DNA from: Vicinamibacteria bacterium
GTDB lineage: Bacteria; Acidobacteriota; Vicinamibacteria; Vicinamibacterales; CAVVIG01
Direction: 5' to 3'
Length of the DNA stretch: 47,215 nt
Assembly: GCA_041476545.1 (NCBI GenBank)
Contig: JBGOTP010000003.1
Coordinates: 1-47,215 of the forward strand
Every line of letters starts with the position of its first letter. Within the stretch, counting starts at the first letter, position 1. The position numbers were made by a program, and so were the translations under genes. The notes below the pieces were generated by a model. It did no database searches and was not told the origin of the DNA. It worked only from the letters and a program-made list of their open reading frames with translations. Positions 32,723-47,215 of this stretch are shown piece after piece.

Positions 32723-34687
32723 CTACGGCCTGGTCGACGCCGCCGGCCAGCTATTGCGCCACTGATCCTCGGCGCGTTTCAGGATCGCCGATGCGTCCCC
32801 CGACAGCAGGTAACGGCCCTGGACAAGGCGATCGGTCGCCTCGCGCGAGAGCTTGAGATACTCATCCGCCGACCGATAGCGCTCTTCGAGCGACCGCCGT
32901 GGGTCGTGCGCCGCCTCGCGCGCCGCGCGCGTCGTTGGAAACGGCACGGCTGAACCGAGCAGGTTCACGACGAGGCTCGATCCGCCTGTCGCCGGATTGC
33001 GGTAGTTCCACCCCGTGTAGGTCGCCACGGGCACGGCCACCTCCGGAAGACGGAGCCCAGCCTTGTCGTTTCCGTCTTCGTCCACCTGAGGGACGAGAAA
33101 CGGAATCGGCTTGCCGTCCTGGCGCCCCGCGGGAATCGTCTTCGGCGACCGCACGCCCGGAATGGCGGGAAACGCCACGAGCTCAACGGGCACCAACGTG
33201 CCGTCGGCCAGCTTCGGATACTGACTCGCCGGCGGCTCGACGCCCTGGCGCACCCACTGGTCCATCGCAACGAACAACGCACGCAGCGACCACCAGTAGT
33301 CGGTCGTGTTATACGGCTGCTGTCCCGTCACCGTTCGGGACGGAAACCGCCCGGGCGAATGCTGGGTGCCCGAGAAGTAGTACACGCGGACGTTCGCGGG
33401 AAGCGGCAGATCTTTCTTCCCGTCCGCCGTCGTCGTGATGAGCGGCGCGGCCCGTCCACCGCCCCAATGCTCGACCGACGAGTTGGTGAAGAAGATCTTC
33501 GGCTGGTTCAGGCGCGCGCGGTCGTTCTCCAGCAGCCCGTCGGTGCGTCCACTAATGGGATCGCGCTGGCTCGTCGCTGCAAACGGAAACGTCGTACCAG
33601 TGAACATCGCGAGGGCGTTCGGCGTGCCGAACCGCTTGTTCACATCCAGACGAGCCGCGCCGGCGATGTGCGCCATCACGGCATCGTAGACCTGTACGCC
33701 GTGTTCGTCCGTATTGAAGCCGTCGTAGAGGAAGGCGCGCAGGAAGCGTCCGCTTTGTGACGACCCGAAGGCATAGGCATAACGCGCCTTCGCGAGCGCA
33801 TCCGGTGCGTGCTTGATCCAGGACGTGACGTCGCGGAAGCCCGCGAGCCCGAGCCCGCTGATTGGCGGATCGGCAGCGCGATAGCTGATCTCATACATGC
33901 GCCCCGGTTCGAATCCGCCGGGCATCGACACGACGTTGCGCTCAATGCTCCACCGGCTGCGCGCGACGACTTCCGGCGGGCCGAACACCTCGTCCCGAAC
34001 GGTGAGGGTGGTGTCGGGCGCATTGGGATCGACCGCCGCGTACGCGAGCAAATCGGCGACCGTCTGGTTCGGTCGGCGATCGCAGGGCGTGAAGACAGCG
34101 CTCACCATCCCGGTCACGCCCTTGGCCTTGGGCAGGTCGACACCCATCACCCCGGCGCGGCGCCTGATGTCGGCTTCCCAGCCGACCCACACGAGGGTCA
34201 TTCCGCGATCGGTGAGGAATCCGTCGCCGAGATTGGGATCAGCGTCCGCGGCCGCAGCATTCTGAGCGCGCGCAGCGGCCGCTGCCGTCGGGCATGGACT
34301 CGCGGCATCGGTGCTGTCAACCGTGCTCGCGACACGACTGAATCGCATGGTGGTCTTTCGTCCACGGTTCACGACGTCCACCAACGCGACGCCGTTGGAC
34401 TTGGCCGCGTCCAGGGGTCGCATGATGTAGAGGTCCGCTGAGAACTCGACCTTCCCCTCGGTATTGACCGGCGCCTTGTCGATGTCGGCGATAACCCGGT
34501 TGCGGGGGTCCTTCGGATCGACGGCAAAGTGAACGATGCCAATGATCTTCTCGTAGCCGGACGTGCCGACCGCCGCACGCGTGATTACCTCGACGCGCGT
34601 GACCTCGGCGTTGGCAGTTGGCGCGGCGACGACCAGCGTCGCCAGGAGGAAGGCGGCGATTCGGACGAGTCCAGTCCTGAGCATCAT
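32723..34687 (-). CDS. Secreted alpha/beta-hydrolase-domain protein
   Basis: Signal peptide MMLRTGLVRIAAF...ANA, NRGRK, nucleophile motif GSSQSGRFLR, SGTQH, PQVDEDGND, DPRRSLEERY. The ORF-track N-extension is epimerase sequence. Confidence 0.82.
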   Translation of the reverse strand: MMLRTGLVRIAAFLLATLVVAAPTANAEVTRVEVITRAAVGTSGYEKIIGIVHFAVDPKDPRNRVIADIDKAPVNTEGKVEFSADLYIMRPLDAAKSNGVALVDVVNRGRKTTMRFSRVASTVDSTDAASPCPTAAAAARAQNAAAADADPNLGDGFLTDRGMTLVWVGWEADIRRRAGVMGVDLPKAKGVTGMVSAVFTPCDRRPNQTVADLLAYAAVDPNAPDTTLTVRDEVFGPPEVVARSRWSIERNVVSMPGGFEPGRMYEISYRAADPPISGLGLAGFRDVTSWIKHAPDALAKARYAYAFGSSQSGRFLRAFLYDGFNTDEHGVQVYDAVMAHIAGAARLDVNKRFGTPNALAMFTGTTFPFAATSQRDPISGRTDGLLENDRARLNQPKIFFTNSSVEHWGGGRAAPLITTTADGKKDLPLPANVRVYYFSGTQHSPGRFPSRTVTGQQPYNTTDYWWSLRALFVAMDQWVRQGVEPPASQYPKLADGTLVPVELVAFPAIPGVRSPKTIPAGRQDGKPIPFLVPQVDEDGNDKAGLRLPEVAVPVATYTGWNYRNPATGGSSLVVNLLGSAVPFPTTRAAREAAHDPRRSLEERYRSADEYLKLSREATDRLVQGRYLLSGDASAILKRAEDQWRNSWPAASTRP

Positions 34688-34725
34688 GCCGGGAGTATAC
34701 AATCCCGGCACCGGCCGGAGAAGGA

Positions 34726-35670
34726 TTACGCGAATGCGGGACTTTCGCTGCGGCACCACGCGAGTGTCCTCCGCAGTCCGTCTTCGAGGGACAACCACCG
34801 GTGAGTAGTCGAGAAGCGTCTTCGCCTTCGTGATGTCGGCCTGCGAGTTCATGACGTCGCCCTGCCGCGCGTCCTTGTAAATCGGCTCGAGGTTCGTCCC
34901 GACGCTGCGGTTCATGACGCGGAGGAGCTCGTTGAGCGAGATACGGGCGCCTGTGGCGATGTCGACCGTTTCACCCGCTGCCGCCGGCGCCGTGCAGGCG
35001 CGCAGCACGCCATCGACCACATTGGCCACATACGTGAAGTCGCGCGTCTGCTCGCCATCGCCGTAGATGGTCGGCCAGCGCCCTTCGAGCAGCGCGGTCG
35101 CAAAGAGCGAGATGACCCCCGAGTAGGGCGACCCCGGATCCTGGCGCGGCCCGAACACGTTGAAATAGCGAGTGGCCGTCGTCTCGAAGCCATAGAGGCT
35201 CGTAAACATCGGCAGTACGCGGTCCCAACGACCTTCTGGAGCGCGTAGGGCGTCAGCGGGCTGGGCGGCATGTCTTCGCGCTTGGGCTGCTCGGGCGCGT
35301 TGCCGTATTCGGCCGACGAGCTCGCGAAGACGAGGCGCCTGACGCCCGCGTCGCGCGCGGCCACCAGGACGTTGAGCGTCGCGGTGACGTTCGCGTGATT
35401 CGATTCGACAGGGTCCTTCACCGATCGCGGGACCGATGCGATGGCCGCCTCGTGCAACACGTAGTCGACGCCGGCGACCACACGCGTTCGCGACGGCCAG
35501 GTCGGTGAGGTCGCCTTCGATGAATTCCACGCCGGGAATATGCGCAAGGTTCCGGCGATGGCCCGTGCTCAGATTGTCGATGACACGGACCCGGTGATTG
35601 CGACCGACGAGCTCCTCCGCCAGATGCGATCCGATGAAGCCTGCGCCGCGGTGACAAGGTAGGAGGCCAT
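34726..35670 (-). pseudogene. Frameshifted NAD-dependent UDP-sugar 4-epimerase (extended SDR; WbpP/GalE/PelX-like)
   Basis: Reconstructed across frames as MASYLVT[G]GAGFIGSHL...HEAAIASVPRS...SSSAEYG...YALQK...RYFNVFGPRQDP...TRDFTYV...LEDGLRRTLAW, which needs four 1-nt indels (~35650, ~35488, ~35210, ~34794). Confidence 0.8.
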
Positions 35671-35673
35671 TCT

Positions 35674-36057
35674 CTAAACGTCCCGGTGCGGGTCTGTCGC
35701 CACGTAATGCTCGAGGACGCCGCGCACCAGTCTGAACTCCTCAACGAGCCGCTGTACGGCCGAATCGGCCTCGCTGAGGTGACCGGCGTCCAGGGCCGCT
35801 TTCAGCTCGAGCGCCAGGACGCGCATGCGGGCGGCGCCGACAGCCCCGCACGAACCAATGAGGTTGTGTGCAATGAAGTGCAACGTGGCCAGGTTCGCGT
35901 CGCTGATTGCGGCCGTGGCTTGAGTCAGAAACTTGTCGGTATCCTCGATAAACATGCCCACGATTTGTGGCAGGAGATCGCCTCCCTCGTCCTGGTGGCC
36001 GGCAAAAACCTCCAACGGCCTCATGTCGAACGTCGGGGTGCTCGTGCTCAAGGGCAT
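35674..36057 (-). CDS. Stand-alone Hpt (histidine phosphotransfer) protein
   Basis: All-helical ~127 aa with AHNLIGSCGAVGA, a variant of the HxLKGS motif. Confidence 0.8.
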   Translation of the reverse strand: MPLSTSTPTFDMRPLEVFAGHQDEGGDLLPQIVGMFIEDTDKFLTQATAAISDANLATLHFIAHNLIGSCGAVGAARMRVLALELKAALDAGHLSEADSAVQRLVEEFRLVRGVLEHYVATDPHRDV

Positions 36058-36322
36058 ATTCGATCTCGCTTGACGGTGAATCGTGAACCTGGCGGACTGA
36101 GCAATCGCCCAGCCAACCTCAGACACGCGGCAAACCGCCGGCAATTCCCTGGCGTACCTGTGCGGCCGGGAAGGCAGCGTGCGCCTACGGCCCATCGATG
36201 GACCTGGAGTGTGCCACCAGCGCTCACGTCCCCCGCACACTTCTGAGTCCTCGCGCGTCCCGCATCCGGCCCTGGCAGCCCTCAAACGGCCAGCTTGCGC
36301 AGGCGTGCGTGCCGCGCAACCT

Positions 36323-36493: not shown

Positions 36494-36874
36494 ATGGGTG
36501 GCGAGCCCGTTTTGATCGTCGATGACAACGAGTTGAACCTGAAGATGACGCGTGCGTTGCTGACAAAAGCGGGCTACGACGTTCGAACGGCCTCGGACAG
36601 CTCGAGTGCGCTCGGCGCGCTCACGGCCTTCAAGCCGCGTCTGATCCTGATGGACATTCAGCTTCCTGGCGTCGATGGGCTGGAGTTGACCAGGGCGATC
36701 AAGAGCGACCCCGCGACTCAGGGCGTCAAAATCCTGGCCGTGACCGCCTACTCGTCGAAGGGAGACGAGGCGAAGGCGATGCTGGCTGGCTGCGACGGGT
36801 ATGTGACCAAACCGATCGATACGCGTGCGCTGCCCGGTATCGTGAGACGACATCTCGATGGGCCCGCCGCGTAA
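36494..36874 (+). CDS. Single-domain response regulator (DivK-like)
   Basis: VLIVDDNELN, LMDIQLPGVDG, AVTAY, AGCDGYVTKP; SD GGAGGA upstream. Confidence 0.92.
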   Translation: MGGEPVLIVDDNELNLKMTRALLTKAGYDVRTASDSSSALGALTAFKPRLILMDIQLPGVDGLELTRAIKSDPATQGVKILAVTAYSSKGDEAKAMLAGCDGYVTKPIDTRALPGIVRRHLDGPAA

Positions 36875-39800
36875 GACGCGTGTCCTCGCGTGGGTCTTGT
36901 TCCTCCTGTGTGCGAGCATCGAGGCCAAAGCCGAGGTGCCGTGGGCGGTGTACTACGCCGATCGCGCAGCGTCGCAGGAGTTCAGCGCGTTTCGCCTGCT
37001 CGTGCTCGACAGCGAGCATCACCCGCCCCTTGCCCCCCTGGCCGCAGACGGGAAGATCCTGCTCGGCTACATCAGCCTGGGCGAAGTCGAAAGCCACAAG
37101 CCGTACTTCGCCGCCATGCAGCGGGAGGGCATCCTGCTGCAGGAAAACGAGAACTGGAAGGGGAGCTTTTCTGTCGACGTCCGCGATCGCCGCTGGCCGG
37201 CGCGCGTTCTCGATCTCTTGATCCCGCAGATCCTCAACGCCGGCTTCGCGGGCGTGTTTCTCGATACCCTCGACAATCCAGCTCACCTCGAACGCACCGA
37301 CTCGAAGAAGTACGCCGGGATGACAGCCGCCGCCGCGGCTCTCGTTGGCGCGATACGCCGGCGCTACCCGACGATCCCGATCATGATGAACAGGGGCTAC
37401 GAGCTGTTGCCGCAAGTCGAGGCGGATATCGACTACGAGCTCGGCGAGTCCGTGTTCGCCGCCTACGATTTCCGGACCAAGCGCTACGCCGCCGTGCCTC
37501 CGGCGCAGTATCGGCAGCAGGTCCAGATGCTCAAGGCCGCCGGGCGGCGCCAGAAGACATTACAGGTCTTCACGCTCGACTACTGGAACCCCGCCGACGG
37601 CACTGGTGTCGAGCGGATTTACCAGGAGCAACGCAAGAACGGCTTCAGTCCCTACGTCGCGACGATCGACCTCGATCGCATCGTGCCGGAGCCCACGCGG
37701 ACCGCGCCGGAGCCCGCGCGGGGCCAGGCTGCCCTTGTGCCGCGCACGATTCTCGCCCTCTATGACAGTCGCTACGACGAGGACGTCCGGCGTCTCCCGA
37801 TTCATCAGATTACGGAAATGCCGCTGAACCACCTCGGTCTGCTCGTCCGGTATCACGACATCAACACACCCCTTCCGCCGCTCGCACAGATGCAGGACGT
37901 CCGCGGAGTCCTGACCTGGTTCCGCGACGATTCCATGTTGGACCCCCTGGGCTTTCTCACGTGGGCGACAGCCGCAATGGATGAGGGCAAGAAGTTCGTC
38001 GTGGTCGGAGACCCGAGCGCCACATTCGATCTCAAGAAACATCTGACGCCGCCGGCCGCGCTCGCCGGGTTCTGGTCGCGGCTCGGGCTGCGCAACGACG
38101 GCGAGTGGAAGACGATCACGTACGACTTGAAGATCGCCTACCGGGATCCGGCGATTGTCGAATTCGAGCGCCCGTTCGCGGGCGTCCTGCCGGGCTTTCC
38201 CAGGATGACGAAGATCGATCCCCTCACGACGTCGCACCTGGTGATTCGCAAGGGCGACGATCCGCGCAGCGACTCCGAATTGCTCGTCATCGGACCTCAC
38301 GGCGCGTATGTCGCGCCCGGATACCTGCATTTCTCGCGGACCGACGATTCGCCCCGCCGCCAGTGGTACGTCAACCCGTTCGAGTTCTTCCGGACGGCGT
38401 ACAGCACCGACGAGATACCGAAGCTGGATACCTCGACCATCTCCGGACGACGGATTTTTTACAGCCACGTCGACGGCGACGGCTGGAGGAACCTGACCGA
38501 GATCGCGCGATACAAACCGCGCAAAGCACTGTCGGCCGAGGTGATCCTCGAGGACGTCCTCAAAGCATTCCCCGACCTGCCCGTGACCGTCGCGCCGGTC
38601 GTGGCCGATCTCGACCCCGCCTGGAGCGGCACGAAGGAGAGTCTTCGCGTCGCGAAGGCCATATTCGCGTTGCCCAACGTCGAGGCGGGGACGCACACCT
38701 ACAGCCATCCGCTCGACTGGCAGGTGGCCGAGGCCGAGCCGCGCACGGCGTCGAACGCCGGCTTCCTGGCCCGTGTTCTCGCGTGGTTTGGCTACGGCGT
38801 GCAGGCCCAGGCGACCTCGGAGATCCGCACCGACCGGACCGATGTGGTGGTCACCAACAAACAACGGCTTGGCGCGCGCTCGTACAACACGCGTCCGTTC
38901 AGTCTGGATCTCGAGGTCCGCCAATCGATGGACTTCATCAACACGCTCCTGCCTCCTGGAAAGCGCGTCAAGATCCTGCAATGGTCCGGCAACACCTCGC
39001 CATCCGCGCGGGTCATCGCGGCGACGAGGGCGGCTGGTCTTCGGAACCTGAACGGCGGCGATACCCGCTTCGATCCGGAGTTCAAGTCGTACGGGTGGGT
39101 GTCCCCCTTGGGAAAACAGGTGGGAGACGAGCATCAGATCTACGCGTCCAATAGCAACGAGAACACGTATACGGACCTGTGGACCGACCGGTTTTTCGCC
39201 TTCCGGTATCTCGAGACCACCCTGAAGAACACGGAAAGCCCCATCCGCGTGAAGCCCCACAACGTGTACTTTCACATGTACTCGGGCGAGAAGCTGCCCG
39301 GTGCGCTCGCCGTGCTCGAGAACTATCGGTACGCCCGTGGCCAGGAGCTGGCCCCGGTGACCGCGTCCAACTATGCCGCCATCGTCGACGGATTCTTCAG
39401 CGCGCGGATCGTCAAGGTCGGCGATCGGCAATGGCGCATCGAGAACCGCGACGCGCTTCAAACGATCCGCTTCGATCGCAGCGCCGCCGTTTCGGTGGAC
39501 TTTTCCAAATCGAGCGGCGTCATCGGACAGCGGGTGTATCAGGGCAGCCTGTATGTGAGCCTGGACGCCGCCGATACGCGCCCGGTTGTGGCGCTGACCG
39601 ACGCGCCCGCGCAGGGACCCTACCTCAGTCATTCGAGGTGGCAGGTGTCACACCTGCAACGCCGTGGCGGTGGGTTCCTGTTCAGCACCCAAGGATTCGG
39701 CGCTGGCGAGTCGATCTGGAAGGTGGCGCCGAATCAACGCTTCGCGATTCGAGTCACCTCGCATAACGGCACCGCCTCGCAGAGCCTGCGATCGGACCGC

Positions 39801-39881
39801 GATGGCATCCTGTCGCTTCGAGTCGTCGGCGCGCCCGATGAGCTGGTGCAGGTGAGCGTCATCCCGGAGGACGCGCCGTGA
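36858..39881 (+). CDS. pelA: PelA-like bifunctional alpha-1,4-galactosaminidase (GH166/GH114-like) and deacetylase
   Basis: Signal peptide, WAVYY, GYISLGE, GVFLDTLD, NRGY, then SHVDGDGW, HTYSHP, LQWSGN, NLNGG, NENTYT and YFHMYS. Confidence 0.85.
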   Translation: MGPPRKTRVLAWVLFLLCASIEAKAEVPWAVYYADRAASQEFSAFRLLVLDSEHHPPLAPLAADGKILLGYISLGEVESHKPYFAAMQREGILLQENENWKGSFSVDVRDRRWPARVLDLLIPQILNAGFAGVFLDTLDNPAHLERTDSKKYAGMTAAAAALVGAIRRRYPTIPIMMNRGYELLPQVEADIDYELGESVFAAYDFRTKRYAAVPPAQYRQQVQMLKAAGRRQKTLQVFTLDYWNPADGTGVERIYQEQRKNGFSPYVATIDLDRIVPEPTRTAPEPARGQAALVPRTILALYDSRYDEDVRRLPIHQITEMPLNHLGLLVRYHDINTPLPPLAQMQDVRGVLTWFRDDSMLDPLGFLTWATAAMDEGKKFVVVGDPSATFDLKKHLTPPAALAGFWSRLGLRNDGEWKTITYDLKIAYRDPAIVEFERPFAGVLPGFPRMTKIDPLTTSHLVIRKGDDPRSDSELLVIGPHGAYVAPGYLHFSRTDDSPRRQWYVNPFEFFRTAYSTDEIPKLDTSTISGRRIFYSHVDGDGWRNLTEIARYKPRKALSAEVILEDVLKAFPDLPVTVAPVVADLDPAWSGTKESLRVAKAIFALPNVEAGTHTYSHPLDWQVAEAEPRTASNAGFLARVLAWFGYGVQAQATSEIRTDRTDVVVTNKQRLGARSYNTRPFSLDLEVRQSMDFINTLLPPGKRVKILQWSGNTSPSARVIAATRAAGLRNLNGGDTRFDPEFKSYGWVSPLGKQVGDEHQIYASNSNENTYTDLWTDRFFAFRYLETTLKNTESPIRVKPHNVYFHMYSGEKLPGALAVLENYRYARGQELAPVTASNYAAIVDGFFSARIVKVGDRQWRIENRDALQTIRFDRSAAVSVDFSKSSGVIGQRVYQGSLYVSLDAADTRPVVALTDAPAQGPYLSHSRWQVSHLQRRGGGFLFSTQGFGAGESIWKVAPNQRFAIRVTSHNGTASQSLRSDRDGILSLRVVGAPDELVQVSVIPEDAP

Positions 39882-42838
39882 GGCCCCGGCACTACATCAT
39901 CTTCGTCGGCCTGTTGATCGTGGGCCTCAGCGGCAGCCTGTTGCTCGTGGCGCGTGAGCCAGAGCTCGCGTTGATCGACTTGCGCGACAAGGAATTCGAC
40001 CGGGCGCTTGGGCGCTATGAACAGCGCCTGGCCTCGGGGGATGTCTCGGTGTCGGTCGTGATACCCCTCTGCCAGCTGTACCTGCAGTTCGGGAAAATCG
40101 ATGCCGCGGTGACGCTGATGGAGCGCTTCGTTCGCGACAACCCATCGAACCTCGATGCCGAGCGGCAGCTGGCGCGGTACTACCAGATGTCCCAGCGCGC
40201 GGAGGACTACCTTCGCGTGATGGAGCACCTCGTGACCCTCGATCCGAATCCGTCGGAAGCGACGCTGCGGGAGCTGTCGGACATCTACAACTTCAGGGGT
40301 GATCTTCCGCGGCAGATCCTGACGCTCCAGAACCTGATCCGCAGGTATCCGAAGGAGCCGCACGATCTGCTGGACCTGGCGAATCTCCAGGCGGCCCACG
40401 GGCAACTGGCGGAGGCAGCCGGGACGCTCGAGAAGCTCCAGGCGGCCCAACCTGACTCCACGCCGCTCGACACGTTTCACTTCCTCCTGAGCGTCCTCCT
40501 CGACTCCGGTCAAAGCGAGGAGGCGGATCGACGCGCACATCAGTGGCTCGTACACCATCCGGATCCGGACACCGCCGCGGGGTTCGCGTCGCTGATGAGC
40601 GGCAAGGGGCAGAAGGGAAAGGCGCTCGTACTGCTCGAGGCCTACGAGCCGAGCGCCGATACCAATCAAGCCGTGCTGATGGAGCTGACGCAACTGGAGG
40701 GGAGCAGCGGACAACAGGATCGTGCGCTCAAGCGACTGGACCGTCTCTTTGCCGCCAATCGGCTGCCCGATGGCGTGCTCGAGCCGTATCTCGATTTGCT
40801 GTTGTCCAGCCACCAGGTGTCCACCGCCCTGGACGTCACGGCTCACCGCGACATCCGGGCGCTGCCGCCATGGCTGCTGTCGAATCTGGCCGATGCGGCG
40901 GCGTCGAGCGCGCGGCGCGATGTGGCCGACTACCTCACGAGTTCCCTTGGCGAGGCCTACCTGAGCGGCCAGCCGCTGCTGGCCGCTCGTGTGGCGATCG
41001 CACGCGACGATCGGCGAACCGCCGTACGGCTGCTCGCGACCCTTGCGCTCGAACCCGACACGCCGGAGACGATGCTCGTCGATCTCGCCAATCTGTATTT
41101 GCAGACCAACGCCGCGGATGGTCTGACGCTGTTCGAGACCGTGCGCGATCGCCGACACTCAGCCGTCATTGACGCGCGCTGGGCGCTCATCGAAGCCAAG
41201 GCTGGTTCGGAGGCCAAGGTCACAGGTTGGCTCAAGAGCGCTGACGACCGCGTCCTCGCGGATGACCTCGTCGAGAGTCTGTACTTCACGGCTCAGGACA
41301 CCGGGAAGAAGACGCTGGCCGTCCTGGCCGCGGAGCGGCTCTACCGACGGCGCCGGACCGGCCCCAATCGCCTTCACCTCGCAACGGCGCTCGTGGCCGC
41401 CGGCAGGCCGATCGACGCGCTTCCGCATCTGCGCGAACTGAAGAGCGGGAATGCCGACGCCGAGCCGTTGTATCTCGAAGCCCTCACCGAGGCCGTCCGA
41501 CAGGGCGCGCCGCAGGACGAGCTGCGGACGTTCTGGACCCGCAAGCTCACCGCACCGAAACTGCCCGATGCCAAACGGCAGGAAATCGTGTACGCGCTGC
41601 TCGACCTCAAGGCGTACGACGCGGCCCTGCCGGCCCTCTTCGCTCTGGCCACCGTGCACGGGGACTCTTGGTTGTTTGCCGCGACCGAGACCGCCGTGAA
41701 GGCGGGCCGAAAGACGGACCTCATCGAGTTTCTGAAGGGTGAAGTGCGCCGACGGGATCTTCCGTTGGCGGACCGCGGCGTTCGCCTTCAGCTCCTGCGG
41801 GAACACGGTGGCGACGCTGTCGCGTTGCCCGACGTTCGTCAGTTCGCCGAGGCTGGCAGTTCGGAGTGGGTGTCGGCGTACGAAGAATCGCTGGCCGGAC
41901 TCGGGAGGAAGGCGGAACTCGCCGCGTTCTGGAAGGCGCGTTCGGCGCGCACGGATGTGAGCGCCTTGGACAAGCGCGGCATCGCGTTCCGCAGCCTCGA
42001 GGCGGGCGAAAAGAAACTCGCCGAGGGACTCTTCCTGGATCTGGCGCGGGACGCCCCCGCCGAGAGTCCAGATGTGGCGCAGCTCCTCTTCATCTGGGGG
42101 CCGCGGCCGACCCCGGCGTCGCTCGACTGGATCGAACGGCGCGCGCGCGCAGCTTCGGGGACCGAGCGGGAGGCCTGGATGCAGCACCTGCTCAACGCAG
42201 GGGCAACTCGGCGCGTTGTCGAGATTGGGCGCGGCGGTGAGGTCTCCGACGTGTATCTGCAGGCCCTGGCGGTCGTGGGAGACGGCGCGGGACTGTCGGC
42301 GGCGATCAGCACGCGGATGCAGGCGACCACCGCCCCGGCCGACCTCCGTCGCCTGGGTCGACTGGCGCTCGAACTGAACCAGACCGCGACTGCGCGCGCG
42401 GCGTTCACGAAGCTGGTGACAATGGCGCCCGCGGACGCGGAGGCGCACCGTCGTCTCGGCCTGCTCGCCTACGCCGAGTCGAACATGACCGCGGCGAGGC
42501 CGCATCTGGAATCCGCCCTCCGCGTCGCGCCACACGACTGGGAGAGCGAGTTCGCGTTGGCGGAGATTCTCGGCAGCGCCGGACAGTCGGCGCCGGCTCG
42601 CCAGCGCTACGCCAGCGCCGTGGCGGATCTCGACCGCGCGACGCCCCAAACGCTCCAGTCGAAGACCACGAGAGCCGTGGCGTTGTCCCGGTTGGGACGC
42701 GTGGACGAGGCGATCGCCGCCTTCGACGCGCTCCTCCGTGAGCAACCCGACAACAAACATCTCCGAGCCGACTATGCAGCCGTCCTGTTGCAGTCCGGCA
42801 GAAACGACGAGGGGCGCCGTGTTCTTGCCGCTCGCTAG
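39878..42838 (+). CDS. Large TPR-rich protein (PelB periplasmic-scaffold-like), no beta-barrel
   Basis: N-terminal hydrophobic segment, helical TPR-like repeats up to the C-terminus, GTGA coupling to pelA. Confidence 0.75.
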   Translation: MRPRHYIIFVGLLIVGLSGSLLLVAREPELALIDLRDKEFDRALGRYEQRLASGDVSVSVVIPLCQLYLQFGKIDAAVTLMERFVRDNPSNLDAERQLARYYQMSQRAEDYLRVMEHLVTLDPNPSEATLRELSDIYNFRGDLPRQILTLQNLIRRYPKEPHDLLDLANLQAAHGQLAEAAGTLEKLQAAQPDSTPLDTFHFLLSVLLDSGQSEEADRRAHQWLVHHPDPDTAAGFASLMSGKGQKGKALVLLEAYEPSADTNQAVLMELTQLEGSSGQQDRALKRLDRLFAANRLPDGVLEPYLDLLLSSHQVSTALDVTAHRDIRALPPWLLSNLADAAASSARRDVADYLTSSLGEAYLSGQPLLAARVAIARDDRRTAVRLLATLALEPDTPETMLVDLANLYLQTNAADGLTLFETVRDRRHSAVIDARWALIEAKAGSEAKVTGWLKSADDRVLADDLVESLYFTAQDTGKKTLAVLAAERLYRRRRTGPNRLHLATALVAAGRPIDALPHLRELKSGNADAEPLYLEALTEAVRQGAPQDELRTFWTRKLTAPKLPDAKRQEIVYALLDLKAYDAALPALFALATVHGDSWLFAATETAVKAGRKTDLIEFLKGEVRRRDLPLADRGVRLQLLREHGGDAVALPDVRQFAEAGSSEWVSAYEESLAGLGRKAELAAFWKARSARTDVSALDKRGIAFRSLEAGEKKLAEGLFLDLARDAPAESPDVAQLLFIWGPRPTPASLDWIERRARAASGTEREAWMQHLLNAGATRRVVEIGRGGEVSDVYLQALAVVGDGAGLSAAISTRMQATTAPADLRRLGRLALELNQTATARAAFTKLVTMAPADAEAHRRLGLLAYAESNMTAARPHLESALRVAPHDWESEFALAEILGSAGQSAPARQRYASAVADLDRATPQTLQSKTTRAVALSRLGRVDEAIAAFDALLREQPDNKHLRADYAAVLLQSGRNDEGRRVLAAR

Positions 42839-44195
42839 CCTCCTGGTGTCGACGCTCCTTGTCGCGGACCCCGTGTCGGTCCGCGCGCAGCCGACCGCCG
42901 GGGGGGGTACAGTCACACTGGACTGGTCGTCGCCGACGACCTTCACCACCGCCGTCGATGGTCGTGAGCTCCTCGTCCAATTCGGCCGTCCGCTGGAGCT
43001 TGGCGAGACGCCGCGGTTGGAAGATGCGTTGAAGGAGACGCTGTCCGGATGGATTGAAGCCGTCACCACCGGTTTCGATACGCTGCTGATACGCGCGGCG
43101 CGCGACGCCCGCTTCACGGTCACTGCCACCGGCCCACTCATCGTTATCGAGATGACTGTCGCGATCCGCACTGAGCAGGCCCCGCCGTCCCTCGACGACA
43201 CGCTGGCCGAGCGTCGGCTGGATCTACTCCGCGCGCAGCTGGCGATGGCCGAGGGACGCTGGACGCGCGCGGATCGGCTTCTTGCGACGGCCGTCGAGGG
43301 ACATCCGCAGGATCGCGAGGCGGCGGACTTGCGCGCGCAGGTGCGTGCGGACCAGGGCGGCAGGGCACGGGTCGACCTCGTCGTCAAGGACGTTCAACAC
43401 GCGCAGACCGAGCGCGTCAGCCGCGTCAGCACCCACGGATTTGTCGGCGGCTATCTTCGCATCGGCGGTGAGTTTGAGGATGACGAGGCGACGCGCCCTG
43501 GCTCCATCTACAGGCGTCAGCGCGCTGACGTGTACGTCCAGCAGGACTTCGACGCAGGTGGCGACCTGCGCATCTCAGGTTTTGGCACCCGGTCGAGTCT
43601 GGGCGGTGGGCTGCACTACGGCCAGCCTGACGCGACTGGCCGCACGCAGGTTCAGGTCGAGTACCGCCGTCCGTTCTGGGAGTTCGTGGAAGGGTTGCTG
43701 GGCGACGGCACCCGCGACCGGGTGGACATTCACCGGGACCAGCGGTTCGGGTCGCGCGTTTCGGGCCGCGTGACGGCGGCGTTCAATCGGTACGGCCTGG
43801 GCGGCGCAGCCGACGTCGCCCGCTCGATCGCCTTCGATGGCGGGCTGAACGTGATGCCTCGGCGATCCAATCCCGCCGTGGGTTTCGAATATGGTCTCGA
43901 CGTCGAGTCGCCACGCGGTGTCGTCGCCGTCACACTACCGCTCGTCAGCCGCGAAGTGCACGCGGGAAGCGGCACCGTGCAGGCCCGCTTTTCCAGGCAT
44001 CTCTCCGCGGACGCGACCGCCGGCTACGTCTGGGACAGACTGGGCGGACACGGTCCGTTCACGACGGCACGAATCAGGCTTGGCGGGCCACGCCGAGTCG
44101 CGTTCGAGCTGTCCTACGACCGCCGGCTCAACTCGGTGGCGACAGGCCAGATCGTCACGCGCACGGGCGGTTTCCTCAACTGGCGGTTCGACTGA
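42819..44195 (+). CDS. Putative outer-membrane beta-barrel (PelB porin-like) with short N-terminal beta domain and TPR-like helices
   Basis: Signal peptide from GTG 42819, alternating amphipathic G/R/Y-rich strands, and C-terminus GGFLNWRFD. Confidence 0.65.
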   Translation: MFLPLASLLVSTLLVADPVSVRAQPTAGGGTVTLDWSSPTTFTTAVDGRELLVQFGRPLELGETPRLEDALKETLSGWIEAVTTGFDTLLIRAARDARFTVTATGPLIVIEMTVAIRTEQAPPSLDDTLAERRLDLLRAQLAMAEGRWTRADRLLATAVEGHPQDREAADLRAQVRADQGGRARVDLVVKDVQHAQTERVSRVSTHGFVGGYLRIGGEFEDDEATRPGSIYRRQRADVYVQQDFDAGGDLRISGFGTRSSLGGGLHYGQPDATGRTQVQVEYRRPFWEFVEGLLGDGTRDRVDIHRDQRFGSRVSGRVTAAFNRYGLGGAADVARSIAFDGGLNVMPRRSNPAVGFEYGLDVESPRGVVAVTLPLVSREVHAGSGTVQARFSRHLSADATAGYVWDRLGGHGPFTTARIRLGGPRRVAFELSYDRRLNSVATGQIVTRTGGFLNWRFD

Positions 44196-45589
44196 TGAGC
44201 AAGCCCCTCGAGCCGCCGATGATCCTGGGCGTGCGCCGCTCGGCCATCCTCGAGGTCGTGCTCTATCTGACGGCGGCGCTCGTGCTGGATCAGTTTCTGT
44301 TCGAGGGCAACCGCTATCGCTCCGTGTCGCCGCATCCGTTCTGGCCCATCGTCCTGCTGACCGCGGTTCAGTACGGAACGACCGAGGCGGTCGTCGCCGC
44401 GGTCCTGGCGAGCGTGGCCCTGCTTGCCGGTCACATCCCCGAGCAATCGATCTCGCAGGATCAATACGAGTACGTGTTGATGCTCGTGCGCGAGCCCGTC
44501 ATGTGGTTCGTGGCGGCCATCGCGTTCGGAGAGCTGCGCATGCGGCACATACGCGAGCGGAGCGCGCTTCAGCTCGACCTCGGCGGCGCGTTGAAGCGCG
44601 AGCAGGATGTCAGCGAGGGGTACAGCCGGCTCACGGTGGTGAAGGACAACCTCGAGACGCGAATCGCCGGACAGTTGCGGAGCGCGATCACGATGTACCA
44701 GGCCGCGCGGAGCCTGGAAAAAATGGACCCGAGCGAGGTGCTGCTGAACGTTATGGACGTCGTGCGCATCATCATGAACCCGGAGAAGTTTTCGCTGTAC
44801 CTGCTGGAGAACGATGTCCTCGAGGTCTGCACCGGAGAGGGATGGACGTCGGACGAGTCGCTGAGCCGCATCTTCCGTCCCGATTCGCGCCTGTTTCACG
44901 AGGTGATTGCGCGACAGCGGGTGGTGTGCGGCGCCAATGAGGAGGACGAGAGGATCCTCGCCGGTGAAGGCATCCTCGCCGGCCCGCTGATGGATCGCGA
45001 AACCGGCCAGGTCATCGGCATGCTGAAGGTCGAGCGCATCGGTTTCTTCGAGCTGCACTTCAGCAATGTCCAGACGTTTGGCGTGCTCTGCGACTGGATC
45101 GCCGACGCCTACGTCAACGCGCGTCGTTTCCAGACGGCCGAGTCCGACTCGTTCGTGGATCCCGCCACCGGCCTCCTGTCGTATTCGTTGTTCGAGCGGC
45201 AGACCACGTACGTGCGTGCGCTCGGCGAGGGCCTGGGCTTCAGCCTGTCGACGCTGCTCGTGAGCGTGGACAACGAGGACGCCTTGACCGTCGAGGATCG
45301 CGCCCGGATGCCACGGGCTGCCGCGGCCGCGATCAGGCACGCCCTGCGCCAGACGGATCAGGTGTTCGACGGCAGTGGGTCGGGTCACTTCTGCTGCATC
45401 CTGATGCCGGGCACCAGCCGGGAGGAGGCCGCACGCGTTGGTGATCGCATCCTGTTCGACCTGAGCCAGATCGACGGCGACGCCAAATTCTCATACGTGA
45501 TACAGCACCTCGACCCGTCTCCACTGGGCCGCAACGATCCCACCCGCCTCGGTCCATCAGTTGACGACGTTCACTATGCAACCGCTTGA
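44195..45589 (+). CDS. pelD: PelD-like c-di-GMP receptor (TM, coiled coil, GAF, degenerate GGDEF)
   Basis: 4 TM segments with PHPFW..QYG, a GAF domain, DPATGL, I-site RQTD (RxxD), no GGDEF motif; TGATG coupling. Confidence 0.8.
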   Translation: MSKPLEPPMILGVRRSAILEVVLYLTAALVLDQFLFEGNRYRSVSPHPFWPIVLLTAVQYGTTEAVVAAVLASVALLAGHIPEQSISQDQYEYVLMLVREPVMWFVAAIAFGELRMRHIRERSALQLDLGGALKREQDVSEGYSRLTVVKDNLETRIAGQLRSAITMYQAARSLEKMDPSEVLLNVMDVVRIIMNPEKFSLYLLENDVLEVCTGEGWTSDESLSRIFRPDSRLFHEVIARQRVVCGANEEDERILAGEGILAGPLMDRETGQVIGMLKVERIGFFELHFSNVQTFGVLCDWIADAYVNARRFQTAESDSFVDPATGLLSYSLFERQTTYVRALGEGLGFSLSTLLVSVDNEDALTVEDRARMPRAAAAAIRHALRQTDQVFDGSGSGHFCCILMPGTSREEAARVGDRILFDLSQIDGDAKFSYVIQHLDPSPLGRNDPTRLGPSVDDVHYATA

Positions 45590-46610
45590 GGCGCCGGCCG
45601 CCACCGTCGTCGTCATCGGAGCGGCGTTGGCCGTCGATCTCGCCGCGCTTCTTGGAGCGACAGTCGGTGCGTGGCCGACGTGGCTGGCCCCCACCGTTCA
45701 CCTGTCGCTCGTCGCGGCCCTGGCGGCGTGGTCGTATGGCGTGCCCAGGTGCCGGGCTGACCTCCGGCTGCCGCTGCTGCTGACGATGATGACGGCGTTT
45801 CTCGGGCCGTTTGGGGCCGCAGGCGTCCTGCTGATGGTGGTCCTGGTCCGGGCGTACGGGAAATCCACGGAATCATTTGAGGTCTGGTTTGCGGCGCTGT
45901 TTCCCGATCAGGTCGAGCCGACAAACGGCCTCTGGCAGAACGTCCTGCTGTCCAATGCGCCGAACCCGGGCCGTGTGGGTGTGACGCCGTTTTCCGACAT
46001 TCTGTTTTTCGGCAGCCTCGCCCAGAAGCAGGATCTGATTTCGCTCATCTCCAAACAGTTCCGCCCCGCCTTCGCGCCGGTCCTTCGACTGGCCATCGAC
46101 GACTCGAACAACGGGATTCGCGTGCAGGCCGCGTCGGCGATCACCAAGATTGAAGACGGCTTCCTCCCGCGGACGCTGGAGCTCTCGGCCGCCGTCCAGG
46201 CGAATCCGGCCGATGCGTCGCTGCTGCTGAAACTTGCGCAGCTCCACGACGAGTACGTGAGCGCGGGGTTGCTCGATCCCGAGCGGGCGCGAGCGAGCCG
46301 GAGCCAGGCGCTGGCCGCGTACGCGGACTACCTGGCGCTGCGTCCCGACGACCTCGAGGCGCGGCTCTCGGCCGGACGGCTCCTCATCGCCGGAGGCCAA
46401 TATGAGGAGGCGGCTCGATGGGTCGAAGCCTCGCTTGAACAGAACGCCGACTCCGTGCCGCTGCGGCTGCTGTACATGGAGGCGCTGTTTCACCTCAATC
46501 GGTGGACGGACCTGAGGCGATTCGCGGCGTCGAGTCGCGCCACCTGCGGCGGCGACGCCGTCTCGCTCGAGGCGCACGAAACGGTGAAGCTGTGGGCGGG
46601 AGCGGCGTGA
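45576..46610 (+). CDS. pelE: PelE-like membrane protein with HEAT/TPR domain
   Basis: N-terminal TM segments (FLGPFG), LRLAIDD..NGIRVQAA HEAT-like motif, TPR-like helices; lies between pelD and pelF. Confidence 0.72.
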   Translation: MQPLEAPAATVVVIGAALAVDLAALLGATVGAWPTWLAPTVHLSLVAALAAWSYGVPRCRADLRLPLLLTMMTAFLGPFGAAGVLLMVVLVRAYGKSTESFEVWFAALFPDQVEPTNGLWQNVLLSNAPNPGRVGVTPFSDILFFGSLAQKQDLISLISKQFRPAFAPVLRLAIDDSNNGIRVQAASAITKIEDGFLPRTLELSAAVQANPADASLLLKLAQLHDEYVSAGLLDPERARASRSQALAAYADYLALRPDDLEARLSAGRLLIAGGQYEEAARWVEASLEQNADSVPLRLLYMEALFHLNRWTDLRRFAASSRATCGGDAVSLEAHETVKLWAGAA

Positions 46611-47215
46611 TGGCGAGAGCTGATGTCTGCCTGATCCTCGAAGGCACGTATCCCTATGTGACGGGCGGGGTGTCGAGCTGGACCCACGACCTCTTGCTGG
46701 CCCAGAAGGACTTGACGTTTCACCTCGTCACACTTCTTCCCGAGAACGCGAACCTGACCTATCGCTATCAGATCCCGACGAACGTCGTCGGCACGTCCAA
46801 CGTGTTCATTCAGAAGCTGCCAGCCGGCCGCTCCTCGATCAAGCGCGCGGGGGATCTCTTCGACGCGCTCCAGGGACCGCTGCTCCGGCTCCAGACCGGC
46901 GGCGGTCTGGATGATCTGCGCGGAATTCTCGAGGCACTGAAGCCGGTTCGAGACTCGGTGGGAAGCCAGCTCCTCCTCAATTCGCCGCGCGCCTGGAAGA
47001 TGCTGCTGAGCATGTACGGCGAGTCGGTGCCGAGCAGTTCGTTCCTCGATTTCTTCTGGAGCTGGAGGTCGCTCGTCGGCGGCCTGTACTCGGTCCTTCT
47101 CGGCGATCTTCCAGACGCCTCGGTTTACCACGCCGTGTGCACGGGGTACGCCGGCCTGCTGCTCGCGCGCGCGCACATAGAGACCGGGCGGCCGACGCTC
47201 CTCACCGAGCACGGC
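46610..47215 (+). CDS. pelF: PelF GT4 glycosyltransferase, truncated by the window edge (absent from the ORF track)
   Basis: My translation gives MARADVCLILEGTYPYVTGGVSSWTHDLL...FLDFFWSWRS...YHAVCTGYAG...LLTEHG; TGATG coupling. Confidence 0.93.
   Translation, partial: MARADVCLILEGTYPYVTGGVSSWTHDLLLAQKDLTFHLVTLLPENANLTYRYQIPTNVVGTSNVFIQKLPAGRSSIKRAGDLFDALQGPLLRLQTGGGLDDLRGILEALKPVRDSVGSQLLLNSPRAWKMLLSMYGESVPSSSFLDFFWSWRSLVGGLYSVLLGDLPDASVYHAVCTGYAGLLLARAHIETGRPTLLTEHG

Follow-up and report, generated by a model that had tools for sequence, protein, structure and literature searches.

Introduction

Cellulose and poly-N-acetylglucosamine (PNAG) are exported by BcsC and PgaA, respectively, single chains that each join a periplasmic TPR region to a 16-strand porin and that are not known to have a PelC-like ring. 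The pel operon of Pseudomonas aeruginosa, pelABCDEFG, also encodes a single-chain exporter, PelB, in which a TPR array lies between an N-terminal anchor and a 16-strand porin. According to PMC12141448, twelve PelC lipoproteins form an essential ring in the PelBC complex of this species (PDB 9h80). In this study, we compared these systems with a pel-like locus in the DNA of a Vicinamibacteria bacterium (Acidobacteriota). The window, by which we mean the whole stretch of DNA analysed (47,215 nt), is one entire contig (JBGOTP010000003.1, our C3) of assembly GCA_041476545.1, which is 96% complete and consists of 576 contigs, the shortest of them 2519 nt long.

We estimate a probability of roughly 80% that the locus is a synthase-dependent Pel-type exopolysaccharide operon with its PelB exporter in two pieces and no recognisable pelC. 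As in P. aeruginosa, the genes follow the order A-B-D-E-F, PelA, PelF, PelD and PelE correspond in type, and PelB is built from the same three elements, its porin finding its best structural match in P. aeruginosa PelB. Unlike in P. aeruginosa, PelB is made as two polypeptides, the porin half bears a signal peptide of its own together with a predicted AMIN-fold domain, and there is no PelC; the sequence similarity of PelB and PelD to the canonical proteins is below detection.

The closest annotated relative of every window gene is found on a plasmid of Azospirillum thermophilum (NZ_CP029356), with 27-57% identity (45% at the PelD position and 36% at the PelE position). PelB is split at the same residue there, and both halves are homologous to ours over their full length. 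Unlike the window, Azospirillum keeps a PelC, of the GNA1162 family, whose gene separates pelD from the porin gene, and its pelA is divided in turn, with the hydrolase encoded by a gene apart from the remainder (L019:1-3077). Fused PelB-like proteins occur in the same clade and in the same pelA-B-D-E-F-G context, also without pelC, in Solibacteraceae, Terriglobia and Bryobacterales metagenome-assembled genomes (MAGs; L011-L014, L042-L044) and in P0025/L039/L016. They differ from the window in being single chains without an internal leader, and the Solibacteraceae-type fused PelB also lacks the AMIN region (matches begin at query residues 119-146). Sequence comparison places the locus in a distinct Pel clade, closest to the uncharacterised Azospirillum locus.

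Gene content of the operon

The final 10.7 kb of the window hold seven plus-strand genes that are translationally coupled, neighbours overlapping by 1 to 20 nt:

36494..36874, + strand: receiver, 126 amino acids (aa), a stand-alone response regulator and the first gene of the operon (PF00072, 97 bits)
36858..39881, + strand: pelA, 1007 aa, periplasmic hydrolase/deacetylase (GH114 at residues 32-273, 77.5 bits)
39878..42838, + strand: TPR protein, the N-terminal half of PelB, 986 aa, an anchor and a long TPR array
42819..44195, + strand: porin protein, the C-terminal half of PelB, 458 aa (473 aa from an alternative ATG at 42774)
44195..45589, + strand: pelD-like gene, 464 aa, GAF_3 (35.4 bits) and three hydrophobic segments, predicted inner-membrane cyclic di-GMP (c-di-GMP) receptor
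45576..46610, + strand: pelE-like gene, two hydrophobic segments and TPR_19 (32.2 bits), inner-membrane TPR protein
46610..47215, + strand: 5' part of pelF, GT4 glycosyltransferase, interrupted by the contig end

An initial annotation of this DNA had proposed six overlapping plus-strand genes in the order pelA, TPR, barrel, pelD, pelE and pelF, at the positions listed above. All six were recovered, and the stand-alone receiver gene at 36494-36874, which it had overlooked, joins them as the seventh member of the operon. Its further claims about layout held as well: the TPR protein and the barrel are separate open reading frames (ORFs), each with an N-terminal hydrophobic segment (residues 4-27 and 1-21, respectively), the TPR protein has an uncleaved-looking segment that would anchor it in the membrane, and the porin stop codon overlaps the pelD start and leaves no room for pelC.

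PelA has a signal-peptide-like N-terminus (hydrophobic segment at residues 9-27) and matched the solved PelA structure 9cgy_A with an E value of 8.2e-71 over residues 30-626, about 600 residues that include the hydrolase domain, in keeping with a multidomain hydrolase and deacetylase. It is one 1007-aa ORF in the window; in L011-L013 and L025, PelA is split or lies in separate frames, with the hydrolase domain apart from the rest. The pelF fragment scored 116.2 bits with the NCBIfam PelF model NF038011 (cut-off 100), covering only profile positions 1-206, and its N-terminal DUF3492 domain (PF11997) scored 170 bits, which identifies the product as a PelF. In the C-terminal domain of the PelD-like protein, an RxxD motif, which we take to be the c-di-GMP I-site, is kept in all ten aligned sequences from the PelD position, two annotated PelDs among them. 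The pelE-like ORF opens with a TTG at 45561 and has its first ATG at 45576. Across the operon products, the hydrophobic segments (Kyte-Doolittle) agree with Pel topology.

The TPR protein has the N-terminal membrane anchor and long TPR array expected of PelB. Its hydrophobic segment (nt 39887-39958) has a Kyte-Doolittle value of 2.67, and the protein matched several TPR families, with TPR_15 marginal at 26.9 bits (cut-off 26.2). It is 43% identical to residues 29-1050 of the fused protein P0025 (1545 aa) and 34% identical to the 1018-aa TPR protein of Azospirillum over the full length.

PelB is encoded by two genes

The TPR and porin proteins are encoded by two ORFs in different frames, not by the one that would make PelB a single polypeptide, and together they correspond to one PelB, as the fused P0025 spans both. 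Such a picture could also arise from one fused PelB gene, through a frameshift introduced in sequencing or assembly or through a recent mutation that made it a pseudogene. The reading frame of the porin gene stays open over 568 codons, overlapping the TPR gene at its end, fused relatives exist, and a run of eight G residues lies at 42900-42907 in the porin gene, just past the leader. We compared the window with contigs from sequencing runs other than its two possible source runs. Contigs from three such runs crossed the junction (42708-43310) with no gaps (X3, 42364-43212; X4, 42757-45047; X5, 42708-43310) and had no indel in the G run. The only indels listed, at 42417 and 42422, compensate each other and come from one X1 contig of depth 2.

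The same-residue split recurs in eight further related loci. These are L010, from an Acidobacteria-labelled MAG with 65-82% identity over the operon; L025, from G378, a same-order genome that is 100% complete in 20 contigs; and the metagenome loci L035-L038, L048 and L049. It is also present on the complete Azospirillum thermophilum plasmid, where RefSeq annotates TPR proteins of 1018 and 526 aa. Relatives at 27-65% identity, a complete RefSeq plasmid included, therefore divide PelB at one site. A hydrophobic, signal-peptide-like leader precedes the AMIN domain in nine of the ten split forms displayed, L025 being displayed too short to judge, and both fused junctions displayed (L039 and L016) lack an internal leader, so that the leader is confined to split forms. 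Stand-alone porin halves of 440-600 aa, moreover, make up 87 of the 150 best representatives in the profile search described below. The frameshift or pseudogene explanation is close to refuted, and the division of PelB into two proteins is genuine.

Structure of the porin half

The porin protein begins with a hydrophobic leader (residues 1-21, Kyte-Doolittle 1.95) and matched no Pfam family beyond a weak TPR hit. An AlphaFold 2 (AF2) model built with 18 homologues had a predicted local distance difference test score (pLDDT) of 86.6 and consisted of the leader, a beta-sandwich, three helices and a 16-strand barrel:

Residues 19-114 (nt 42873-43160, + strand): AMIN-fold beta-sandwich, AF2 model
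Residues 125-179 (nt 43191-43355, + strand): three TPR-like helices, AF2 model
Residues 182-456 (nt 43362-44186, + strand): 16-strand porin barrel with the strand number of PelB, AF2 model

A Foldseek search with the model returned PelB from the P. aeruginosa PelBC complex first (9h80_M, E value 4.6e-13, TM score 0.66), followed by BcsC and PgaA (9b8a, 6tzk, 4y25), in line with the barrel that the initial annotation had proposed for the second ORF. BcsC and PgaA, the second and third structural matches, share the periplasmic TPR and 16-strand porin with the window but are single chains that serve other polymers in other operons. We found 21 stand-alone homologues of the porin protein. From porin residue 17 onwards it aligned with residues 1057-1545 of the fused P0025 at 34% identity, and it was 27% identical to the 526-aa Azospirillum protein over the full length, AMIN region included.

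When folded alone, the beta-sandwich reached a pLDDT of 91.3. Its best matches were AMIN domains, with VIA Z scores of 12.5 for PilQ (3jc8), 12.5 for AmiC (4bin residues 34-145, root-mean-square deviation 2.3 A) and 10.0 for the B2 domain of PilQ (4aqz), whereas unrelated small heat-shock and CS-domain folds scored 7.9 or less. Foldseek also placed AmiC 4bin first, weakly, with an E value of 2.2e-3. The modelled residues 19-114 are thus predicted to adopt the AMIN beta-sandwich fold. In contrast to the AMIN domains of AmiC and PilQ, with which the fold is shared (Z 12.5 and 10.0), this region gave no Pfam AMIN match at E values up to 10. No AMIN domain is known in BcsC or PgaA.

No recognisable PelC gene in the locus or its relatives

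PelC is a lipoprotein of about 170-220 aa with a CsgG/LpoB/GNA1162 fold, encoded between pelB and pelD. We observed it at this canonical position in Paraburkholderia (annotated LpoB), Pseudoalteromonas and both Azospirillum plasmids. In the window, the overlap of the porin stop with the pelD start leaves no slot for such a gene. The same holds for the related loci: pelD directly follows the barrel in nine of nine loci from the genome set (the window, L010-L014, L016, L017 and L025; L015 ends at the barrel) and in 14 of 16 loci from metagenomes, with L036 and L050 ending too early. All 23 related non-Azospirillum loci that reach far enough therefore share the pelC-less order.

We also searched for PelC away from this slot. 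Pfam PF05643 was too insensitive for the purpose: it had no match in any of 14 control genomes, gave the Azospirillum PelC no more than 26.5 bits and failed to detect the one from Paraburkholderia. A hidden Markov model (HMM) built from four PelCs scored 244-285 bits on its own training sequences, which is no independent control, and had no match at an E value of 0.1 or better in the related loci. Over five whole genomes (the window's own, G378 and those behind L010, L012 and L013), its best matches reached 23.6 bits or less and were long unrelated ORFs, none of PelC size. The weak matches that we checked were a CsgG-family protein, a winged-helix/TPR regulator and an FlgO-like ORF. The best match in the window's own genome (E value 0.0012) was a CsgG-family ORF at C143:1821-2735 (L033; 71 bits), which is unlinked to the pel genes. 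The initial annotation had allowed for a pelC further downstream; none lies there in the relatives, and nothing is conserved after pelG in L012 and L013. ORFs downstream of pelG in these two loci were considered as PelC analogues and rejected, since they are not conserved between the loci, have no Pfam match and are Arg-rich like wrong-frame ORFs.

Export could still need a lipoprotein of the PelC kind, with its gene at another site or its sequence too divergent for recognition, the apparatus being otherwise canonical except for gene order. Relatives of PelC are only weakly detectable, the window's own genome is 96% complete and spread over 576 contigs, the CsgG-family protein on C143 belongs to the same broad fold group, and Azospirillum, the closest cultured relative of the locus, retains PelC. 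Yet no PelC-size match was present in five genomes, one of them 100% complete in 20 contigs, the weak matches belong to other proteins, and the conserved slot is empty in 23 of 23 loci, which favours real loss over relocation in each. We regard a hidden PelC as unlikely, though not negligibly so. The simplest reading of the 23 pelC-less loci, by analogy with BcsC and PgaA, would be export that is independent of PelC.

Assignment to the Pel family

Several observations weigh against our assignment of the locus. Neither PelB half reached the Pfam PelB barrel family PF24604 (B-barrel_PelB_C), even at an E value of 10; the search, which covered the porin protein, P0009, P0019 and P0025, gave no match for any of them, and the Azospirillum porin homologue scored 22.4 bits, below the cut-off of 31. 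Neither half matched PelB in the PDB by sequence, the porin protein being without any PDB sequence match, and a profile-profile comparison with canonical PelB aligned the TPR stretch only, at a probability of 10%. Because direct sequence matches to canonical PelB are absent, membership of PelB rests on fold, context and fused homologues. The PelD-like protein had no Pfam GGDEF match and no sequence match to the solved PelD structures in the PDB. The AMIN domain does not track PelC loss, and it is not a PelC substitute because both are present in Azospirillum and neither in the Solibacteraceae-type fused forms. PelC-type lipoproteins are hard to detect by sequence, and an unlinked or divergent analogue, for example the CsgG-family gene on C143, could exist. 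Finally, the window's own assembly lacks the 3' half of pelF and also pelG, for which PF16933 and the L010 PelG gave no match; this limits any statement on completeness to the visible genes.

The names might also be mere homology labels, with the operon making a polymer other than Pel. Identity to the canonical beta- and gammaproteobacterial proteins is low (PelA 26%, PelF 34-36%), PelB and PelD have no BLAST match to them at 1e-3, and we identified no sugar-nucleotide genes within the operon. On the other hand, the match between PelA and the solved structure extends over about 600 residues and includes the GH114/GH166-type hydrolase domain, PelF exceeds the NCBI equivalog cut-off, and the relatives keep the order pelA-B-D-E-F-G. 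We consider a different polymer quite unlikely.

The missing pelG raises the question of whether the operon is incomplete or decaying, with pelG truly absent, as the empty searches of the assembly would allow. However, the contig end falls inside pelF, contigs of other runs continue past it (X1 by 921 nt and X4 by 266 nt), and the missing piece of about 2.3 kb would fall below the smallest contig kept (2519 nt); the six visible genes are all intact. pelG follows pelF in L010, L012, L013 and L017, with 410-418 bits, and a PelG match after pelF is also present in L025 and eight metagenome loci. A decaying operon is thus very improbable, and in a Pel-type operon with a two-piece PelB, pelG would lie beyond the contig end. 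Contig C545 was tried as the source of the missing pelF 3' end and rejected: it is 31% identical to the C-terminal half of L010 PelF (the N-terminal half in the window is 83% identical), and an AMP-ligase gene follows. C545:1-2877 encodes the C-terminal half of a GT4 protein (98.6 bits with the PelF model), then AMP-dependent ligase-like and asparagine-synthase-like ORFs, and is part of another polysaccharide locus.

Proposed export mechanism

From family membership, PelF would polymerise the sugar, PelD, PelE and PelG would form the inner-membrane core that moves the polymer across, and PelD would act as the c-di-GMP switch. PelA would trim and deacetylate the polymer in the periplasm. The TPR protein may serve as a periplasmic scaffold held in the inner membrane by its N-terminal anchor, and the separately secreted AMIN-TPR-porin protein may be the outer-membrane exit. 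Because fused homologues exist, the two halves are expected to dock in the periplasm and so rebuild a PelB-like conduit. A complex prediction with the C-terminal 227 residues of the TPR protein and porin residues 23-185 scored 0.24 (mark 0.32) and counts neither way. The AMIN domains of AmiC and PilQ bind peptidoglycan, and by analogy the AMIN domain could tie the porin to peptidoglycan; by analogy with BcsC and PgaA, the porin could work without a PelC ring.

We tentatively propose, at a little short of even odds, that a large and mostly environmental Pel clade exports its cationic polymer without a PelC ring and uses a two-piece PelB with an outer-membrane half pinned to peptidoglycan by the AMIN domain. 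If this is true, PelC is a proteobacterial add-on and not part of the core of Pel export, and surveys of diderm bacteria seeded with PelC would have missed the clade. A clade without PelC in 23 of 23 loci makes the actual role of PelC directly testable, and the split offers a natural break point for structural work on the PelB scaffold. The gain is incremental, since every component is of a known kind and the layout is a common one.

Distribution, host and earlier surveys

We searched 1.84 billion cluster representatives with a profile of the porin protein, found 609 relatives at an E value of 1e-30 or better and tallied lengths for the best 150. AMIN coverage was scored as a profile match starting before position 50; since only the best-matched stretch was considered, the numbers without AMIN are upper bounds.

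440-600 aa (stand-alone): 87 of the best 150, of which 79 cover the AMIN region
Over 1200 aa (fused): 32 of the best 150, of which 16 cover the AMIN region
601-1200 aa: 19 of the best 150, of which 10 cover the AMIN region
Under 440 aa: 12 of the best 150, of which 0 cover the AMIN region

PelB of this clade is thus often two proteins and often has a predicted AMIN-fold domain. The ESM Atlas contained three clusters of look-alikes of 490-519 aa, with 84 to 211 members, mostly from Pseudomonadota.

The initial annotation had read the locus as a distinct Pel variant and implied that it was rare. A Pel-type locus with a split PelB and no pelC within the locus stood, and the rarity did not: cultured Azospirillum (with PelC) and eight further related loci share the split, stand-alone porin halves are the majority among the best representatives, and a figure legend of a 2020 survey (PMC7112194) already names pelB fission in 'aquatic thermophilic species'. 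A split PelB without PelC is a common, undescribed variant within the Pel kind, widespread in environmental bacteria and not a singular oddity. According to PMC7112168, PelC was the seed of the first survey of pel loci in Gram-negative bacteria, and pelC-less loci were therefore invisible to it. Our literature searches returned no publication that deals with Pel in Acidobacteria or with an AMIN domain in PelB, which does not prove absence from print.

Within the phylum, the pel locus is rare and patchy. The porin gene was present in none of 40 relatives, two of them of the same genus. DUF3492 occurred in six of 401 sampled genomes of the phylum, and among the four of these examined only G378 had a pel locus. 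DUF3492 alone does not mark a pel locus, because in G123, G129 and G140 (L026-L028) the DUF3492-GT4 genes, 26-28% identical to PelF, are not accompanied by other pel genes; one of them lies beside a GH114-like ORF. The Acidobacteriota host proposed by the initial annotation agrees, indirectly, with the elongation factor P (EF-P) encoded in the window. This protein shares 86% identity with its counterpart in a genome of the same genus, 82% with the one in the Acidobacteria-labelled MAG that carries L010 and 81% with the one in G378, of the same order. The stretch is present in sediment metagenomes, and the locus extends Pel-type matrix genes to sediment Acidobacteriota.

Neighbouring genes and related loci

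The receiver gene and the start of pelA share 17 nt. An ORF with 77% identity to the receiver lies upstream of pelA in L010, and no receiver was found among the upstream ORFs scanned in L011-L013, L015, L016 and L025. A divergent ORF with an Hpt domain (35674-36285, - strand) lies upstream of the receiver gene. Together, the receiver and the Hpt ORF suggest phosphorelay control of the pel operon, which would be added to the c-di-GMP switch. Further upstream, a 935-aa ORF (32723-35530, - strand) combines an Abhydrolase_10 domain with the C-terminal portion of an NAD-dependent epimerase and may be two genes or reflect a frame problem.

Some related loci had features of their own. Three PelD ORFs (L017:22-2061, L038:6428-8266 and L039:6053-8263) are longer than usual, with a second partial match to the PelD C-terminal region, and a CBS-GGDEF gene follows pelG in L017. 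On a Paracoccus liaowanqingii plasmid (L022), only hypothetical genes precede pelF, the locus being cut by the record start. On a Cereibacter azotoformans plasmid (L023), pelF and pelG stand behind two small hypothetical genes and a gene of the 'polysaccharide biosynthesis/export family', and neither PelB nor PelC is annotated; it represents a further non-canonical layout for Pel export among cultured bacteria.

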